A stretch of 11,936 nucleotides of DNA from Candidatus Micrarchaeota archaeon (lineage in GTDB: Archaea > Micrarchaeota > Micrarchaeia > Norongarragalinales > SBBD01): assembly GCA_038046605.1 (NCBI GenBank), contig JBBSVW010000058.1, positions 1 through 11,936 on the forward strand, given 5' to 3'. Each line of letters starts with the position of its first letter. Position 1 is the stretch's first letter. Made by a program: the position numbers and the translations under genes. The notes under the pieces were generated by a model. The model worked only from the letters and a program-made list of their open reading frames with translations, made no database searches and was not told the DNA's origin. Shown here in pieces: positions 3,983-11,936 of this stretch.

Positions 3983-4054
3983 AATTTACCACCGGAATCC
4001 AGTGGGATTTGTAAAATATATGATTTATTTTCATTTTTTTTGTCCAATAGCAAC

Positions 4055-4075
4055 TTTTAATAATATTATTGTGAT
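4055..4075 (+). promoter_or_regulatory. Putative archaeal TATA box and operator region of the Lrp gene, inside the divergent methyltransferase/Lrp intergenic region
   Basis: TTTTAATA at 4055-4062 lies 23 nt before ATG 4086. It overlaps the 12-bp palindrome AATAATATTATT (4059-4070). GTGAT is at 4071-4075. Confidence 0.45.
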
Positions 4076-4085
4076 TAATCTAAAC

Positions 4086-5060
4086 ATGAGCGAATTCCAT
4101 TTGGATCAGAAGGATCGGAGGCTGCTCGCAGGCCTGGACCGGAACGCGCGTTCGCCGACCTCACTTCTGGCAAAAAAGGTCGCGCTTTCAAAGCAGGCCG
4201 CTGCTTACCGGCTGGAGCGCCTGCAGAAGAATGGCGTCATCTCCGGTTTCCTGACAATTATCAATCTTCCCCTCTTGGGGTACACTGGCTTCCAGCTCTA
4301 TTTGAAACTCAGGAGCGCTCCCCGCAAGAAAGAGGAAGCGCTTGTAACTTACGCACTCAACCATCCCCGAGTAATTTGGGGCATCCGCTGCACCGGCAGT
4401 TGGGATTTCCTGATTCTGTTTGCAGAGCATTCCGTTAAAGAATTCGATTCGGATTTGAAGGCGCTCATGCGCGAATTCTCGCCCTTCATCGCAACAACCG
4501 CCTTTTCCGTCTACACTTCCTGGCGCCATCTGAATCACAAGTATATTACCGGGGAGGAACCCGCAATTCGTTTTCTAAGGGAGAGCAAAACTGCCGAGCC
4601 GATCGATGAACTGGACCGCAAAATCTTATCCATAATTTCTACAAATTGCAGGGCCTCCTTATTGGAACTCGCAGCAAGAACTAAAATTCCAGCTTCCACA
4701 GTTGCCTACCGGCTGAAGGAATTGCAGAAACGAAGAATAATCGTAGGCTTCATGCCGCACCTTGATTTCAACAAAACCGGCTACCAATACTTTCATGTAA
4801 TCCTGAAACTCCGCCCAAATGTCACCGATGAAAGGAAATCCCAGTTCCTGCGGTTTTTCGAATTCCACCCCAATATTGTGTACATTGAGGAATGCTTCGG
4901 CGAAGCCGATTTGGAGCTTGAAGCGCACTTCCGGAATGCGATTGAACTCCGGGAATTCCTCGTTGGCATTCGCGGCAGGTTCGGGGAAGCCTTGGAATCA
5001 GATGAGTCCGTTCTCGCGTTTGATGTGATAAAGTATAATTACTTCCCTTTCAAAACCTAA
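4086..5060 (+). CDS. Tandem (double) Lrp/AsnC-family transcriptional regulator, ~324 aa
   Basis: Two wHTH+RAM units. The first is LDQKDRRLLAGLDRNARSP...AYRLERLQKNGVI followed by CTGSWDFL. The second is IDELDRKILSIISTNCRAS...AYRLKELQKRRII followed by CFGEADLE. ATG 4086 gives the typical N-terminus. Confidence 0.92.
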   Translation: MSEFHLDQKDRRLLAGLDRNARSPTSLLAKKVALSKQAAAYRLERLQKNGVISGFLTIINLPLLGYTGFQLYLKLRSAPRKKEEALVTYALNHPRVIWGIRCTGSWDFLILFAEHSVKEFDSDLKALMREFSPFIATTAFSVYTSWRHLNHKYITGEEPAIRFLRESKTAEPIDELDRKILSIISTNCRASLLELAARTKIPASTVAYRLKELQKRRIIVGFMPHLDFNKTGYQYFHVILKLRPNVTDERKSQFLRFFEFHPNIVYIEECFGEADLELEAHFRNAIELREFLVGIRGRFGEALESDESVLAFDVIKYNYFPFKT

Positions 5061-5197
5061 CCCCCATCTTCCTCAATTCGGCCATTACCTGCTCCGTACT
5101 CTGGAAATAAATCGTCCGGATGCCTGCCGCCTTCGCCCCGACCAAATAATCCTGCCTGTCACCGATGAAAATCATCCGATCCGCGCCTTCGCCAACC

Positions 5198-5206
5198 TTT
5201 TTATTA
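5198..5206 (+). promoter_or_regulatory. Putative TATA box of the HAD gene
   Basis: TTTTTATTA ends 21 nt before ATG 5228. The same spacing is seen at 4055, 9223 and 11896. Confidence 0.45.
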
Positions 5207-5227
5207 CCTCGAAGACATCTTCATAAC

Positions 5228-5827
5228 ATGGGCCTATTCCGCTTCGATTATTGGACGCAAAGGCTGACCATAATTATAGCCCTGCTGCTCTTTTTTTCCG
5301 GCTGGCTCTTGCTTGAGGAAACCCGTGACTACCTTCTTTGGATTGCCGTTTCATACCTGCTTGCGATTTTTATCTATCCATACTTCAAGAAGTACTTCTT
5401 TTCCAAAACCGTCATCTTTGATTTTGTTGGTGTTGTGAATATCGGCACGATGGAGGATTATTACATGGGCAACATTTTTGTGCGCCCGGGCATGCGCGAA
5501 TTGATTGAACGCCTAAAGGTGAACAACAAAGTTGTGCTCTTTTCCAACAACCCCTGGGAGGCGCACCAGGTTTTCAGCAAGAAACTAGGGCTTGATTCCC
5601 TCTTTGATTTTCAGTACACATCCGGCTCCATAAAGCACCGCAAGCCCTTTGCCGAGGCATACCGGATCATCCTAGGGAATATTAATTCCAGGCCCGGCGC
5701 ATCGGTTATGGTTGATGATAGGACGGACTACCTGACCGGCGCTTCGGAAATAGGCATGCACACAATTTTGTTCAAGGACATGGAGCAGTTAATGGCAGAT
5801 TTGAGGGCGCTTGGATATAGGTTCTAG
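5228..5827 (+). CDS. HAD-superfamily (subfamily IA-like) hydrolase with two N-terminal transmembrane helices, ~199 aa
   Basis: Motif I VIFDFVGV, motif II LFSNN, motif III RKP, motif IV MVDDR and GASEIGMHTI. Hydrophobic segments LTIIIALLLFFSGWLLL and YLLWIAVSYLLAIFIY come first. Confidence 0.85.
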   Translation: MGLFRFDYWTQRLTIIIALLLFFSGWLLLEETRDYLLWIAVSYLLAIFIYPYFKKYFFSKTVIFDFVGVVNIGTMEDYYMGNIFVRPGMRELIERLKVNNKVVLFSNNPWEAHQVFSKKLGLDSLFDFQYTSGSIKHRKPFAEAYRIILGNINSRPGASVMVDDRTDYLTGASEIGMHTILFKDMEQLMADLRALGYRF

Positions 5828-6900
5828 TTTTTGATGAAGTAATCCTCCCGAAAATCTATCAGTTTTCTCCAATGGGCATCCCGTTTTTCCCTATCCCCTG
5901 GTACGTTCCAGAATTTTTTATCGGCAAAGGGTTTTCCCCTAACCGCTTTGATCATGGCCGCGGATGGGCCTTCCGTCAATCCAAGACTTCTCCTTAATCT
6001 ATTAAGGAAAAAGCACCGGAATTCCAGGCCCTTTTGCTTAAGCGTTTCGAAATCAAGGGAAAGGAGCTTGATCCATTGCTCCTGGCTTATTTGCGCTAAT
6101 TTCTCGTGAATATCAATGATCCTTCCCATATCGCCCACAAATTCGCCGTCCACTTTCAGCGCCCATTTTTTCAATCCCTTAATCGGATCGCCCTTGTACT
6201 GAGAATGGCAGGTTATCCCCTCAAGCCAGAAATCCACATTTTCGTAGATGCAATAGATTGCTATGCGGTCAGCCGGGAAGCTGCGCGCCCCCTTCCAAAG
6301 GGAAAGCGGCTTAAGGTTCATGAAATTCTTAATTACCAGGATCTGGTTCTTCTTCAAATTCCTGCTTTTATATGGCCCTACATATTCGAAGGCGTTCCCC
6401 ATGTAGATGTCTGTGAACAATCCGTCCGTCAAATGATACCCCGAATTGGTGATTTTTCCAAGCAATTTGGCAATATCAGGATTCCCCTCTTGGAATTTTG
6501 ATTCCCCAATGATTTTATCAATTTCCTCCTGGGAATGGGCCCGGTTTGCTTTCCTGTTGTATGCATCCGTTCGCCTCCAGCCTGATATGATTGAATGGAA
6601 CAGGCGGGCAATCCTTTCCCGATCCTCGAATTTTAGTTTAGCTACTTTCATATCCAGGGAGGTAAAGTAAACCTGGTCCAATGCTTCAGAAGGGCTATCC
6701 GTGAATTTGTAAATATTCTCCCAGGATATGTTGCCGTTTTCTATGCTTTTGCATACCTCCAAGAGCCATTCACACCATTCTTTGGCAAATAGGGGATGGA
6801 ATTGCATATGGGAAAATGGCGCAAGGGTTTGGAAGTCCATTGATGTTGCCCAATTCAATGATTGTTCTGCAAGTTGGTTTTTCCAATCATCAGATTTCAT
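5824..6900 (-). CDS. Hypothetical soluble protein, 358 aa, no family recognised
   Basis: A long ORF with globular composition that fills the space exactly. Its ATG overlaps the upstream swivel-domain gene by 11 nt and its stop shares CTAG with the HAD stop. Confidence 0.85.
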   Translation of the reverse strand: MKSDDWKNQLAEQSLNWATSMDFQTLAPFSHMQFHPLFAKEWCEWLLEVCKSIENGNISWENIYKFTDSPSEALDQVYFTSLDMKVAKLKFEDRERIARLFHSIISGWRRTDAYNRKANRAHSQEEIDKIIGESKFQEGNPDIAKLLGKITNSGYHLTDGLFTDIYMGNAFEYVGPYKSRNLKKNQILVIKNFMNLKPLSLWKGARSFPADRIAIYCIYENVDFWLEGITCHSQYKGDPIKGLKKWALKVDGEFVGDMGRIIDIHEKLAQISQEQWIKLLSLDFETLKQKGLEFRCFFLNRLRRSLGLTEGPSAAMIKAVRGKPFADKKFWNVPGDREKRDAHWRKLIDFREDYFIKN

Positions 6901-7213
6901 AAATTTCCCCTTTGAGGCCGTCCACGCTCACTTTCATGCCTTCCTTCAGCTTGGTCGTACCATTCTTTGTGTTCACAATGCATGGAACACCTAGTTCCCT
7001 AGCAAGAATCGATGGGTGCGACATCAATCCCCCCATATCGCAAATTATAGCGGCTGCTTTATTCATCATAACCGTCATCGAAGGGTCGGTTATTCTCGTG
7101 ACTAGGATTTCGCCATCTAAAAACCGGCTGTAATCTCCAATTCCCCGGATTATCCTAACCCTTCCAGTTGCCTTCCCCGGGCTTGCGCCGATGCCTTTCA
7201 AAACAAGTTTCAT
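6890..7213 (-). CDS. Stand-alone PEP-utilising enzyme mobile (phospho-histidine swivel) domain protein, 107 aa
   Basis: GIGASPGKATGRVRII, GEILVTRITDP, GGLMSHPSILARELGVPCIV (His66, codon 7018-7016) and VSVDGLKG. GTGAT lies 4 nt upstream of ATG 7213. It has no ATP-grasp or PEP-binding barrel. Confidence 0.93.
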   Translation of the reverse strand: MKLVLKGIGASPGKATGRVRIIRGIGDYSRFLDGEILVTRITDPSMTVMMNKAAAIICDMGGLMSHPSILARELGVPCIVNTKNGTTKLKEGMKVSVDGLKGEIYEI

Positions 7214-7281
7214 ATGAATCACGTTAAAAAGATTCCAGGCATGATGTTCATTAAACTATTCCGCTTCGTGTGATTAATAAT

Positions 7282-9252: not shown

Positions 9253-9897
9253 ATGAAACTACCTTTGGAAAAGCGCCTTCGTAAGCGCATGCATGTGCAA
9301 ATAGGCTCATTGCAAGACGAAGCCATGGATGTACTTTATTCCATAAGCGACAAATTTACCCTGCATGGCGGGACTGCAATCTGGCGGTGCTATGGTGGTG
9401 GCAGGTTTTCCGAGGATATTGACCTTTACGCCACAAAGCTGCCGGATGACTTTGAAACTACCCTTGCTGACGCCCTAAAATCCCGGGCCTTGCAACTTCA
9501 AAAATTCAAGAAGACGCAAAACCTCATATTCTGCAAAATATCCTCTCCGGAAGCGGAGATTAGGTTGGAAATAAATTTTTCCGCAAATGTTAAGGCAGTT
9601 CCAATTCCCTTCGAGAAAATCGACGGTTCCTCCATGATTGTGCTTTGCCTTTCTGTTGATGATCTGATAATCGAAAAGGCAAACGCCTATATTTCAAGGA
9701 AACTTATCCGTGACATCTATGATGTATATTTTCTCCTTCCAAAGATTACAGATGCAGTCATCCTTTCCAGGTTGAAACCGTTGGTGCAAAAATTCCTAGA
9801 TCCGTTTGATGAGGATAACTTGAAGGCAATAATTTATTCAGGTGCAATTCCAACCTATGCGCAGATGCACAATTACCTTATGGGGCATTTGAAATGA
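9253..9897 (+). CDS. abiEii: AbiEii/AbiGii-family nucleotidyltransferase toxin (type IV TA), 214 aa
   Basis: LHGGTAI...RFSEDIDL (GGTA and RxSEDxD motifs), EKANA and RDIYDVY. Confidence 0.9.
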   Translation: MKLPLEKRLRKRMHVQIGSLQDEAMDVLYSISDKFTLHGGTAIWRCYGGGRFSEDIDLYATKLPDDFETTLADALKSRALQLQKFKKTQNLIFCKISSPEAEIRLEINFSANVKAVPIPFEKIDGSSMIVLCLSVDDLIIEKANAYISRKLIRDIYDVYFLLPKITDAVILSRLKPLVQKFLDPFDEDNLKAIIYSGAIPTYAQMHNYLMGHLK

Positions 9898-10475
9898 GCA
9901 ATTTCAAAATAATGCGGGAGGCATTTTCGAAGCAGCCGGCATTTACAATAGGGGATATGGGGAGGCTTCTTGGCAAAAAGGTGAGCCGCGAATACCTAAG
10001 CCAATTGCTGCACCAGCTCGCAAAGCAAAAGCGCATTTTCCGGATAAGGAACGGAGTTTATTCTTTTTCAGATGACTCCCAAATGGCTGGCTTTGCCTTC
10101 CGGCCCTTTTACTATGGGCTGCAGGATGCGCTTTCTTTGCATGGATTATGGGAGCAGGAAACAAATCCGGTGGTGATTACCGCTAGGAAGGTGCGCAGCG
10201 GCCTTCGGAAATTTTTCGGCTCTAATTTTGTCGTAAGGCGGGTTTCAAAAAAAATGCTCTTCGGGTCCGAGCCCATGAAATACGGCGAATACTGGATACC
10301 TGTTTCAACAATTGAAAAAACGCTTATAGATATGGTTTATTTCCGGCAGCATTTTACTCAAGAATTGAAAACGGAATTTCGCAAGCGCGCTGACCGGAAA
10401 AAGCTCGCTGATTTGCTTGAGCGATGCCCCGCATGGGTAAGGGAACGGGTTTCGAAGATTGTAAGAATAGGGTGA
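9894..10475 (+). CDS. abiEi: AbiEi-family antitoxin / transcriptional regulator, 193 aa
   Basis: N-terminal wHTH (FTIGD...LHQLAKQKRIFRIRNGVY), YYGLQDALSLHGL and VSTIEKTLID. ATGA overlap with the toxin stop. Confidence 0.85.
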   Translation: MSNFKIMREAFSKQPAFTIGDMGRLLGKKVSREYLSQLLHQLAKQKRIFRIRNGVYSFSDDSQMAGFAFRPFYYGLQDALSLHGLWEQETNPVVITARKVRSGLRKFFGSNFVVRRVSKKMLFGSEPMKYGEYWIPVSTIEKTLIDMVYFRQHFTQELKTEFRKRADRKKLADLLERCPAWVRERVSKIVRIG

Positions 10476-10485
10476 TTTTGATATG

Positions 10486-10551
10486 GGCAGGCAGGTTTCC
10501 GGAGATTTTGCGATGCAAGGTGAGGATGTGGTGGGGCTGCATGTGATGTGA
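10486..10551 (+). repeat. Direct repeat copy 2: degenerate duplicate of the GTPase 3' end
   Basis: It translates as GRQVSGDFAMQGEDVVGLHVM* against GQQVSGDFILKDEDVVELHMK* in the gene (13/21 aa identical, stop at the same position). Confidence 0.9.
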
Positions 10552-10648
10552 GTATCTCTGCTGGGTTGCCTCTTAAAAAGTAGCATTTTATGAAAAGGCT
10601 CGTTTAGCATACTTATAAAATATATTGAAATATCAAATTCTTGATAAT

Positions 10649-11761
10649 ATGCGGGAAAGAAAAAATAATAGTTACATGAAAAAATATTTTCAATTGACAA
10701 TCCTTTTAGCAGGCATACTTTTATTATTTATCATTAGTAATATTTTTCAAGTTAAGTCCGAACCTCAATCAATAATTGCTACATCAGTAACGCCATCTGT
10801 TTCAGAGAAGATTACGGTTACATTATACCCTACTACAAAAGAAATAATCGATCCCTATGAAAATAATTCTCCAACTCCTAAGGTGGAGGAAGTAGATAAT
10901 TACATTAATACTCATTATTCTATAGACGAATTAAAACAATTTGTTTTAAATCTAATTAATGCAGATAGAAAAAATGCAAGTTTGAAGCCTGTTTTTATGG
11001 ATAACAAAACAGCTGCACAAAAACATGCTGAAGAGATGATGAATAATAAGTATATTTCTCATTGGAATTTATTAGGACAAAAACCCTATGTCAGATATAG
11101 CATTGAGAATGGAACACAAGCAGTTGCGGAAAATGTCGCCTTAACTTCATATTACCAAAGAGACTCAAAAAATCTTCTTTTTGATGCCAAGATAGCAATC
11201 GCTAATCATGAGTATGGTATGATGTACGATGATGCTGATTGGGATTGGGGGCATCGTGATACCATCCTAAATCCATATCATAAAAAAGTCAATATTGGAG
11301 TTGCCTATAACAATGAGACTTTGGCGTTAGTTCAAGATTTTGAAACTGACAATATAATTTGGGAACAGCTTCCTACTATTCAAAATGGCTGGATAAAATT
11401 GAAAGGCAAAGTATTGGAAGGACAACTTTATGATGTATATATTTATTATGAAAAATTTCCGCAATCGCTGGATCTTGGTTCATTTAAAGAATGGCCCTAT
11501 AACGGATCATATTCTGAGGGCGAAAATGTAGCGGTTATTATTGAAGCTGATCACTTCCTCAATAATTTCAATGGAAGAATAATATATTCGACTAGGTATA
11601 ATGCAAATGCAGGGGGGCCTTTTGAAATTGAAGCGTATTTAGGCGATTGGATGCTTGACTATAACGATGGTATATATACTGTCGATGTTGTTGGTATGAT
11701 GAATGATAGAAAGAAAAAAACTTTAAGCACTTATTCGATCTTTTATAACAAAACGAGATGA
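10649..11761 (+). CDS. Membrane-anchored or secreted CAP (SCP) domain protein with a C-terminal beta-rich domain, ~370 aa
   Basis: N-terminal hydrophobic helix (LTILLAGILLLFIISNIF) and a Ser/Thr/Pro linker. CAP motifs are LINADR, AAQKHAEEM, ISHW, AENVA and GHRDTILNP...VNIGVA. TTATAAAA lies at 10613-10620. An alternative ATG is at 10676. Confidence 0.9.
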   Translation: MRERKNNSYMKKYFQLTILLAGILLLFIISNIFQVKSEPQSIIATSVTPSVSEKITVTLYPTTKEIIDPYENNSPTPKVEEVDNYINTHYSIDELKQFVLNLINADRKNASLKPVFMDNKTAAQKHAEEMMNNKYISHWNLLGQKPYVRYSIENGTQAVAENVALTSYYQRDSKNLLFDAKIAIANHEYGMMYDDADWDWGHRDTILNPYHKKVNIGVAYNNETLALVQDFETDNIIWEQLPTIQNGWIKLKGKVLEGQLYDVYIYYEKFPQSLDLGSFKEWPYNGSYSEGENVAVIIEADHFLNNFNGRIIYSTRYNANAGGPFEIEAYLGDWMLDYNDGIYTVDVVGMMNDRKKKTLSTYSIFYNKTR

Positions 11762-11888
11762 CATCTTTAGGGGTTTTTGAAATAATTACCCGTTTTTTTC
11801 CATTTTTGCCCAAAACGCTCAAGCGGCATTCCTTTCACCGCCTGAATTCACATCTCATTTTGCGGTAGAGGTGTTGAAAGAACTATAG

Positions 11889-11903
11889 CTAAAGGTATAA
11901 ATA
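11889..11903 (+). promoter_or_regulatory. BRE/TATA promoter for the next gene
   Basis: Purine-rich AAAGG is followed by TATAAATA (11896-11903), 22 nt before ATG 11926. Confidence 0.6.
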
Positions 11904-11925
11904 CTGGAACTTCTTTTAATTCAGT

Positions 11926-11936
11926 ATGACTTGGAA
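11926..11936 (+). CDS. Probable start of a gene running off the right edge (MTW...)
   Basis: ATG at the expected distance from a good TATA box. Only three full codons are visible. Confidence 0.35.

Follow-up and report, generated by a model that had tools for sequence, protein, structure and literature searches.

A free-standing swivel protein and an unnamed partner family in Micrarchaeota: candidate parts of a multi-component phosphotransferase

How might a swivel domain of the PEP-utiliser type operate as a separate protein, and with which partner? This question is raised by two overlapping genes on the minus strand of the window (the whole stretch of 11,936 nucleotides of Micrarchaeota DNA analyzed here). 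An earlier note, made from the sequence alone, had described a 107-aa gene composed only of this domain, with its histidine intact, which overlaps by 11 nt an unrecognised gene of 358 aa (here termed X), and had proposed X as a new partner in a two-gene phosphotransfer enzyme. Both genes and their overlap were found as described, and the relevant features are as follows.

5165..5827, plus strand: gene of 220 aa for a HAD-family hydrolase-like protein whose N-terminal part has hydrophobic segments (PF00702, PF13419)
5824..6900, minus strand: gene X, 358 aa, member of an unnamed family and predicted docking partner of the swivel protein
6890..6900, minus strand: 11-nt overlap (ATGAAATCTGA), in which the end of the swivel gene with its stop codon runs into the start of X
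6890..7213, minus strand: swivel gene, 107 aa from the ATG at 7213, stop codon at 6892..6890, matching PF00391
7016..7018, minus strand: codon of His66, the presumed phospho-carrying histidine, in the loop GGLMSHPSI (direct read, 107-aa numbering)

Pfam analysis of the swivel ORF revealed one family and no other, PF00391 (PEP-utilizers mobile domain; E 7.6e-25, 86.8 bits vs. a gathering cut-off of 23.1). The match covers profile positions 3-72 of 72 and residues 36-105 of a 110-aa form of the protein, starting at an alternative GTG at 7222 (minus-strand ORF 6890..7222). The protein contains the motif GGLMSHPSILARE, whose loop GGLMSH follows the G-G-x-x-S/C-H pattern of the catalytic histidine of PF00391. 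Among the NCBIfam models, the nearest in sequence is that of PEP synthase (NF005057, E 2.9e-33), while the rifampicin phosphotransferase (RPH) model gives a match over the last 100 residues (E 6e-20, far below the cut-off of that model) and the matches of PTS enzyme I are weak. A pseudogene fragment of a PEP synthase was considered and rejected: in relatives, the X-linked free swivel genes are kept as open frames of 104-158 aa, and His66 together with the GG..SH loop is invariant in all 19 X-linked free swivels compared. The regulatory Thr of the PEP synthase/pyruvate phosphate dikinase (PPDK) type, two residues before the histidine, is replaced by Met64 in the window swivel, as the earlier note had pointed out; this holds for the single protein but not as a family trait, since Thr occupies this position in 14 of 19 relatives, and the change is thus a local variant. 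A mark of the X-linked swivels is instead the Pro directly following the histidine, which is present in the window swivel, in 26 of 33 X-linked swivels and in none of 21 other swivels. In a phylogenetic tree the X-linked swivels form their own clade (32 of 33 monophyletic, support 0.96), and the window swivel lies inside it.

The second protein, X, matched no Pfam family and no NCBIfam family, and a nucleotide-binding, phosphate-binding or catalytic motif could not be recognised in it by these two collections. Sequence searches of the PDB with two family profiles (A1 and A2) gave best E values of 0.42 and 0.39, respectively. A model of X obtained with AF2 from an alignment of 101 sequences (pLDDT 96, pTM 0.93) was used in preference to a poor one built on five sequences only (pLDDT 59.9). 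Foldseek comparison of X with the PDB and BFVD yielded no match at E<=1e-3 (best values 7.3e-2, for TolC, and 6.7e-2, respectively), the VIA-align fold search gave no known-family match, and no RPH chain was present among the fold-search matches listed for X. The ESM Atlas provided no lead (own model with pLDDT 0.34, unnamed-cluster features and structural TM-scores of at most 0.32). A likeness to arginine kinase was rejected (Foldseek E>=0.14, TM about 0.1 only). The fold of X is confidently predicted and, as modelled, is without a counterpart in the PDB.

By Pfam, NCBIfam, the PDB sequence search, Foldseek and VIA-align, X belongs to an unnamed family without characterised relatives. This family comprises 282 representative clusters at 50% identity (E<=1e-3). 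Conservation among 101 members is highest at D164 (88%), G175 (99%), P176 (89%), Y177 (98%), P198 (86%), W202 (91%) and H232 (77%, i.e., replaced in 23% of members), and the segments that had been picked as candidate functional ones (YHLTDGLFTD, EYVGPY...IKNFMNLKP..LW and TCH) coincide with the most conserved positions. The window protein fits over its full length profile A2, which is composed of 101 stand-alone members and headed by this protein as its first row. It carries D164, G175, P176, Y177, W202, Y219 and H232, and departs from the family at two common positions (L74 for R and E310 for W). No paralog of X was found in this genome, either by a genome search with X or by phmmer comparison with the 17 swivel proteins of the genome. 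A homologous-protein search with A2 retrieved 12 proteins and no new names; a scan of genome contigs yielded two loci, and a metagenome scan with profile A5 added six, mostly short.

The association of the swivel with X proved to be widespread. Among 401 sampled genomes of the phylum, 18 carry X, and in 16 of these a swivel-bearing gene adjoins it on the same strand; the same arrangement was observed in four of the four metagenome loci that include the upstream DNA. The swivel gene lies upstream of X in most lineages and downstream of it in family f12. The link between them exceeds inherited synteny, since the gene order varies. The 11-nt overlap suggests, at the sequence level, translational coupling. 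An overlap of the same length is present at another locus, where the swivel ORF runs as far as 6011 and the X match sets in at 6001, provided that X starts at that ATG.

Covalent fusions join the two domains as well. The 150 best representatives of X included 13 swivel-X fusions, two Y-swivel-X fusions (P0035 and P0039; thus 15 of 150 with swivel and X in one chain), and one X-PPDK_N fusion (P0110; PPDK_N E 2e-97); Y-X fusions were also observed. Here Y denotes a domain like the rifampicin-binding domain, a label that in the X fusions rests on position and on a partial match (the last ~40 residues before the swivel), since the N-terminal domain of both types (Y-X and Y-swivel-X), compared by hhalign with the Y part of the paralogs of this genome, gave a probability of 0.4%. 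At the DNA level, one locus (L049) encodes swivel-X as a single ORF of 487 aa. Furthermore, in the three f12 genomes examined the X-swivel pair is followed directly by an ATP-grasp gene, and in one of them (G353) the operon consists only of X, X, swivel and ATP-grasp genes. The proposal of the earlier note stands as far as partnership is concerned, being supported by gene linkage, fusions and a predicted complex (see below); as a two-gene enzyme it is probably incomplete, since the fusion and the operons link the swivel-X pair to a third, ATP-grasp part.

The predicted swivel-X complex reached ipSAE values of 0.89, 0.91 and 0.91 in three runs, compared with 0.01 for the best of three controls. 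At least 97% of the contacts (82-83 in number) were common to the runs, and the pLDDT of the partners was at least 93. The score expresses the model's own confidence, and its calibration, in which the mark was reached by 116 of 157 solved complexes and 2 of 215 mismatched pairs, applies only roughly with the alignments used here. The PDB searches revealed no solved relative of X, which means that the prediction cannot reproduce a known structure of the entire pair. On the swivel side, the predicted interface is formed by residues 60-66, including His66; on the X side, it involves D164, K191, position 145 (R/K), position 227 (D/E) and H232. In the models the His66 loop is placed against conserved residues of X (D164, K191 and H232), located in the following segments.

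6409..6471, minus strand: X residues 144-164, helix with the closest predicted swivel contacts, ending at D164 (interface list, lowest-error pairs)
6330..6328, minus strand: codon of X K191, a position with R/K in 95% of members, touching the swivel in the predicted complex
6181..6222, minus strand: X residues 227-240, interface strands with E227 (D/E in 73%) and H232 (predicted complex, conservation)

Positions 145 and 149 are occupied by R/K in 82% and 71% of members, respectively. The mean conservation of the interface (0.38) is not above that of the rest of X (0.36), and few polar positions stand out. Since X has no recognisable catalytic motif, the swivel might serve it as a mere structural or binding module, in a pair without phosphotransfer function and with an X whose activity has nothing to do with phosphate. 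This we consider highly improbable, given that the catalytic His and its GG..SH loop are invariant, that the loop is located in the predicted interface and that X is repeatedly linked to ATP-grasp genes.

With a little better than even confidence, we propose that a swivel-based phosphotransferase of the PEP synthase/RPH kind, made up of several components, includes the swivel and X as two of its parts, with X on the acceptor side and ATP as the donor. The 107-aa protein would be a free-standing phospho-histidine carrier and X a new terminal domain on which it docks, with His66 turned toward a conserved polar pocket (D164, K191, E227 and H232); at the docked site, a substrate bound by X would then take over the phosphoryl group. 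The donor would most likely be ATP, and the ATP-grasp (PPDK_N) protein that uses it would act in trans; in this genome, the 319-aa protein of contig C68 may fill this role. Most likely, a three-piece ATP-dependent dikinase would have in X its acceptor-substrate domain, one of a new type; the acceptor role of X, the use of ATP and phosphotransfer as such are all read from the architecture and the models.

The size and confidence of the predicted interface, with its 82-83 contacts, resemble a stable complex more than a transient encounter. This would also suit X as a target or regulator of the carrier, i.e., a phosphorelay acceptor (e.g., through H232 or Y177), or a factor that sequesters the swivel or acts on it as a phospho-His phosphatase; in or near the interface there are conserved His and Tyr residues, and phosphatase-family genes recur beside X. 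Within 1.5 kb of X, HAD genes were found in six loci, and LMWPc recurs next to X in two. In the window itself, the HAD-like gene converges on X, the two overlapping at their 3' ends; a functional tie to X is conceivable, on a genomic background of nine PF00702 matches in 1.64 Mb. However, the 15 swivel-X fusions fit two domains of one enzyme better, the ATP-grasp fusion and operons have the appearance of a dikinase architecture, and the incomplete conservation of H232 argues against it as a phosphorelay site. A target or regulator role is therefore, in our view, quite improbable.

The proposed dikinase would require an ATP-grasp component. As the earlier note had stated, none is encoded nearby: neither PPDK_N (PF01326) nor the PEP-binding barrel (PEP-utilizers_C, PF02896) was detected by Pfam in any of the window's 14 main ORFs. 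Away from the swivel-X pair, this genome carries an intact stand-alone ATP-grasp gene on contig C68 (319 aa, PPDK_N E 3.7e-98) and a complete PEP synthase of 831 aa on contig C9. The genome also encodes 14 Y-swivel proteins that could be scanned and a fifteenth cut at a contig end; the profile of these proteins matches residues 482-878 of PDB 5hv2 (E 1.8e-35). Of 13 X-positive genomes of the order, nine have a clear stand-alone ATP-grasp, two have only contig-end fragments and two have none (G125, 90% complete, and G285, 82% complete). The stand-alone ATP-grasp also occurs in X-negative genomes and is thus not specific to X.

This distribution, together with the Y-containing fusions, bears on the side of the reaction to which X belongs. 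The Y-X and Y-swivel-X fusions set X beside the domain that binds the substrate in RPH, which leaves room for X as a donor or accessory part. As a phosphoryl-donor domain, X would charge His66 from a donor other than ATP via an ATP-grasp (e.g., a phospho-metabolite, PPi or polyphosphate), in a role like that of the PEP-binding domain in PTS enzyme I, and the acceptors would be the Y-swivel proteins or their substrates. The two Y-swivel-X proteins would then be complete acceptor-swivel-donor enzymes for which an ATP-grasp is unneeded. Moreover, G125, assembled in 8 contigs, has X, the swivel and about 17 Y-swivel genes, while its sole PPDK_N match is a full PEP synthase; four genomes without X and without a free ATP-grasp have no Y-swivel genes; and five loci (L025, L032, L037, L039 and L050) have Y-swivel genes next to the swivel-X pair. 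On the other hand, the genomes compared are few, incomplete and mutually related, and one X-negative genome (G131) has Y-swivel genes together with a stand-alone ATP-grasp. X has no recognisable nucleotide- or phosphate-binding motif, P0110 joins it to an ATP-grasp domain, and the G353 operon, taken with X as acceptor, contains donor, carrier and acceptor in full. A donor role for X is, on balance, unlikely, and X as acceptor domain of an ATP-dependent dikinase is the reading retained here.

A wider extension of the acceptor reading is doubtful, although it deserves to be set out. The free swivel might be a diffusible, HPr-like phospho-His carrier joining one ATP-grasp kinase to several acceptor modules in archaea with small genomes such as these. 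Two swivel-docking catalytic classes, the PEP-binding barrel and the rifampicin-binding domain, would be joined by X as a third, which would phosphorylate a metabolite that has so far escaped recognition. If the 15 Y-swivel paralogs are counted in, the whole would constitute a modular small-molecule phosphorylation network in Micrarchaeota.

To our knowledge, the terminal domains with which swivels work are few: ATP-grasp, the PEP/pyruvate barrel, the rifampicin-binding domain and the glucan-binding parts of glucan water dikinase. The family added here, unnamed and with at least 282 sequence clusters, is tied genetically and, by prediction, structurally to a dedicated swivel clade; if X is catalytic, this would mean a new reaction or substrate for swivel-based phosphotransferases. 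From a limited literature search, we know of no earlier case of the swivel as a separate protein. Genome-reduced DPANN archaea have more swivel proteins than would be expected, and the pair may account for some of them; the proteins of 107, 358 and 319 aa offer a concrete, easily expressed three-protein system for studying how a swivel chooses its docking partner.

Among known systems, PEP synthase and PPDK include the closest sequence relative of the swivel (PEP synthase), but the pair described here is without PPDK_N and the PEP-binding barrel and has Met at the regulatory Thr. In the PTS, HPr is a small free protein carrying phosphate on a histidine between larger partners; the HPr fold differs from that of the swivel, which is contained in PTS enzyme I. 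The likeness to the PTS is an analogy of concept only, and Pfam detected no PTS components in the main ORFs of the window. RPH (PDB 5fbs and 5hv1) shares the logic of ATP-grasp, His swivel and substrate-binding domain, but its roughly 865 aa form one chain, and X showed no resemblance to its substrate domain in the sequence comparisons or among the fold matches listed. A close parallel in component structure is provided by HpeHI, CreHI and PpsAB (phenylphosphate synthase), experimentally established two-component dikinases of the RPH family with a separate ATP-grasp, in which a small molecule receives phosphate from ATP by way of the swivel His (PMC12167813). In contrast to these, the window swivel is a separate 107-aa protein, unfused to a substrate domain, the ATP-grasp gene is not adjacent, and X is unrelated to the rifampicin-binding domain (hhalign vs. 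the Y-swivel profile, 0.2%). The HpeHI/CreHI/PpsAB type is also present in this genome, with its Y-swivel proteins; the genome has one free ATP-grasp as well.

The following two genes were distinguished by ORF calling in the window:

6890..7222, minus strand: free swivel gene (PEP-utiliser mobile domain, PF00391), 110 aa from a GTG start (107 aa if translation begins at the ATG at 7213)
5824..6900, minus strand: gene of protein X, 358 aa

The free swivel matches a single Pfam family, PF00391 (E 7.6e-25; 86.8 bits, cut-off 23.1), and its histidine (His66, codon 7018..7016) lies within the loop GGLMSHPSI. Protein X matches no family in Pfam or NCBIfam. The swivel stop and the X start overlap by 11 nt (ATGAAATCTGA), and Pfam detected neither an ATP-grasp domain (PF01326) nor a PEP-binding barrel (PF02896) in the window's 14 main ORFs. 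Every detail of the arrangement from which the earlier note had proposed a two-gene phosphotransfer enzyme (a swivel-only gene with its His, the overlap, an unrecognised partner, no ATP-grasp or barrel in the window) was thus confirmed by ORFs, Pfam and the sequence. The nearest named proteins related to X are annotated as hypothetical and come from Candidatus Micrarchaeota, and no paralog of X was found in the window's genome (an assembly of 1.64 Mb in 106 contigs, 90.7% complete).

Protein X is present in 18 of the 401 genomes sampled from the phylum. The X loci, with 1.5 kb of flanking DNA to either side, were scanned with X and swivel HMMs. In 16 of these 18 genomes a swivel-bearing gene on the same strand adjoins X, the exceptions being G192 and G395 (X partial). 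The neighbour is mostly a small free swivel (open frame of 104-158 aa), and in G356 a longer frame with the swivel at its end. The window shares its whole neighbourhood (EamA transporter, DRG-like GTPase, methyltransferase, exosortase-like protein and M50 protease) with loci L023 and L024, and the adjacency of X and swivel is in large part inherited synteny. The order of the genes nevertheless varies by lineage: the swivel precedes X in the window's order, whereas it follows X in family f12 (loci L029, L033 and L036). Among 6 further metagenome loci with X, the swivel is directly upstream in 4, including a single fused ORF of 487 aa (L049); the other 2 start with X at the contig edge, so their upstream side is uninformative.

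A first, word-indexed search with X returned 5 clusters, whereas a profile run exhaustively against 1.84 billion representatives gave 282, 166 and 87 proteins at E thresholds of 1e-3, 1e-10 and 1e-30, respectively. The best 150 of the 282 representatives were sorted by architecture with our own HMMs and Pfam (Y denotes the N-terminal part, like a rifampicin-binding domain, of the Y-swivel proteins):

X stand-alone, 300-399 aa: 102 of 150
X shorter than 300 aa, likely fragments: 26 of 150
swivel-X fusions, about 426-491 aa: 13 of 150
Y-like domain, swivel and X (P0035, P0039): 2 of 150
Y-like domain and X without swivel (P0013, P0021, P0025): 3 of 150
tandem X-X (P0006, P0020): 2 of 150
X and PPDK_N (P0110; PPDK_N E 2e-97): 1 of 150
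X of 410 aa: 1 of 150

The linkage of X homologs to swivel genes, which the earlier note had made one of the tests of its proposal, therefore holds in genomes, in metagenome loci and in 15 fusions among these 150 (13 swivel-X and 2 Y-swivel-X). X and Y are unrelated by hhalign (probability 0.2%). X is also doubled, both in the X-X fusions and as adjacent gene pairs in G353 (L054:4551-6735) and G172 (L035/L044), which may mean a dimeric function or diversified substrates.

A maximum-likelihood tree was constructed for 54 swivel domains from the window's genome, the loci and the fusions (four duplicate loci and partial domains of <85 profile positions were dropped). It placed 32 of 33 X-linked swivels in one clade (support 0.96; the exception is L042), which holds 0 of 20 Y-swivel domains, excludes the PEP synthase swivel and includes the swivels of both Y-swivel-X fusions. 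Pro directly follows the His (S-H-P-S/A-I) in 26/33 X-linked swivels versus 0/21 others; the X-linked swivels without this Pro include the three of f12, with S-H-A-A kept. The Met two residues before the His, at the regulatory Thr site of PPDK and PEP synthase, which had been singled out earlier, is present in the window, but relatives have Thr in 14 of 19 cases.

In an AlphaFold2 model of X (alignment of 101 stand-alone members; mean pLDDT 96.0, pTM 0.93), residues 5-162 form about seven helices. Two long helices (141-162 and 258-280) pack onto a sheet of six strands (171-250), and the C-terminus is helical. The X-swivel complex, predicted from 101 rows for X and 19 for the swivel, reached ipSAE of 0.89, 0.91 and 0.91 in three runs versus 0.01 for the best of 3 controls, with >=97% of contacts in common and partner pLDDT >=93; in calibration, which is rough here as own alignments were used, the mark was reached by 116/157 solved complexes and 2/215 mismatched pairs. 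Because X has no solved relative, this score cannot stem from a solved complex already known to the predictor, although swivel domains are known to dock on other domains. The predicted interface comprises swivel residues 41-51, 60-66 (the G-G-x-x-S-H loop with His66) and 69-75, and X residues 20-27, 144-164, 191, 227-240 and 265-277, including the following:

D164: 88% conserved
position 191: R/K 95%
position 145: R/K 82%
position 149: R/K 71%
position 227: D/E 73%
H232: 77% conserved

Several of the X interface residues rank among the family's most conserved polar positions. On average the interface is no better conserved (0.38) than the rest of X (0.36), and the signal is therefore confined to a few polar residues rather than the whole surface. 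By the contact list, rather than measured distances, His66 is predicted to face D164, K191 and H232; the suggestion that it docks on conserved residues of X is thus borne out in the predicted complex, which places the His66 loop in the interface with them. That X is a protein target or regulator of the swivel carrier we hold to be improbable.

The three f12 loci were extended outward for ATP-grasp neighbours. In G256, X (362 aa) and the swivel (108 aa) are followed by an 827-aa protein with N-terminal PPDK_N and C-terminal swivel, the same layout as rifampicin phosphotransferase. G060 has this arrangement with a 677-aa protein, and G353 has the order X, X, swivel, 290-aa PPDK_N protein (the profile match ends at position 283 of 328). 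With the P0110 fusion, these loci give four X-ATP-grasp links. Of the 13 X-positive genomes in the window's order, 9 encode a clear free ATP-grasp, in frames of about 306-441 aa; two of the remaining 4 have ATP-grasp fragments at contig ends only, and G125 and G285 have none. Free ATP-grasp also occurs without X, e.g., in G131 (8 Y-swivel genes).

We lean towards the reading that the pair and an ATP-grasp protein constitute a three-protein dikinase, in which X takes the acceptor side instead of the PEP barrel or rifampicin-binding domain. ATP-grasp would pass the ATP beta-phosphate in trans to His66 of the free swivel, a step established for the family; once charged, the swivel would bind to X and hand on its phosphoryl group to a substrate in an X pocket lined by D164, K191, E227 and H232. 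The best arguments are the X-PPDK_N fusion and the operon in G353, which comprises X, X, swivel and ATP-grasp with no other gene of this sort. The main rival, X as the donor side, seems rather unlikely to us. In its favour, it would make Y-swivel-X a self-sufficient enzyme, and it agrees with G125, which has the X pair and about 17 Y-swivel genes with no free ATP-grasp found (assembly 90% complete), and with four genomes lacking X, free ATP-grasp and Y-swivel genes alike, although the genomes behind these comparisons are few, related and incomplete.

Genes of the HAD family lie at most 1.5 kb from X in the window, G172, G308, G285 and G315; in L050 the distance is about 1.2 kb or less. LMWPc genes adjoin X in L041 and L046. 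The window's gene is convergent with X, the 3' ends overlapping:

5165-5827, plus strand: HAD-like gene, its matches to HAD profiles confined to their C-terminal half (positions 95-187 of 191)

Its product has hydrophobic N-terminal segments, and what we take to be motif I reads D-F-V-G-V, without the second Asp of typical HAD phosphatases. Since PF00702 has just 9 matches in the 1.64 Mb of the genome (two in frames of 748 and 962 aa), chance HAD-X adjacency should be rare; some of the HAD-bearing loci are close kin, and the HAD genes come from different subfamilies. By analogy with the Hpe pathway, phosphatase neighbours fit a phosphorylate-then-dephosphorylate pathway and are a possible substrate hint, which proves nothing. 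A role of the pair outside phosphotransfer seems very improbable.

Elsewhere the window carries a gene pair in which the toxin comes first, the usual AbiE order being antitoxin-first:

9253-10475, plus strand: AbiEii-like nucleotidyltransferase toxin gene (214 aa; PF08843, E 1.9e-18), then AbiEi-like antitoxin gene (193 aa; weak PF09407 and PF13338 matches), 4-nt overlap

The 352-aa protein encoded at 4002-5060 (plus strand) has two AsnC-type HTH modules (PF13412 and PF13404, in two stretches) and one weak AsnC ligand-binding match, and by sequence looks like a tandem-duplicated Lrp/AsnC regulator. Region 10500-11936 has a GC content of 0.33 versus about 0.46 elsewhere in the window and encodes a protein of 378 aa that has a hydrophobic segment in its N-terminal part and matches the CAP/SCP domain weakly (PF00188, E 1.6e-4); G353 likewise has a CAP-domain gene close to its X operon (L054:2306-3361).

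The window's genome has 17 PF00391 matches, among them the window's free swivel and a complete PEP synthase (831 aa; PPDK_N, swivel and PEP-utilizers_C). Fifteen of the 17 are Y-swivel proteins of 274-533 aa, with a C-terminal swivel and an N-terminal part without Pfam family. A profile built from 14 of them (the 15th runs off the end of its contig) matches rifampicin phosphotransferase (PDB 5hv2; positions 109-485 to chain residues 482-878, E 1.8e-35), which relates Y to the rifampicin-binding domain. Their genes are spread over contigs C60, C86, C79, C47, C101, C68, C73, C89, C23 and C52 (loci L009-L018), with three in tandem on C101 and two convergent on C23. A single intact free ATP-grasp is encoded in the genome, its gene being the second one upstream from a Y-swivel gene:

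C68:18103-19017: stand-alone ATP-grasp, 319 aa

Between them lies a 221-aa gene (L021:738-1403), whose product resembles, by eye, a helix-turn-helix protein in its C-terminal part. Y-swivel genes thus number 15 beside a single free ATP-grasp here, about 17 in G125 and none in four related genomes, and the substrate subunits of two-component dikinases are strikingly expanded in a reduced 1.64-Mb genome.

In HpeHI, CreHI and PpsAB, an ATP-grasp protein and a protein with a rifampicin-binding-like domain and swivel cooperate via the swivel His (PMC12167813). The window genome's Y-swivels and free ATP-grasp match this architecture. The genome therefore carries many copies of a known enzyme kind, from which the window's swivel and X pair differs. 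No description of the X family, its fold, the His-Pro clade or the swivel as a separate protein was found in Pfam, in NCBIfam or by full-text literature searches. Swivel-based phosphotransfer, split forms included, is already known; the new elements are X as a partner family, the apparently new fold of X, the His-Pro swivel clade and the swivel as a separate protein.
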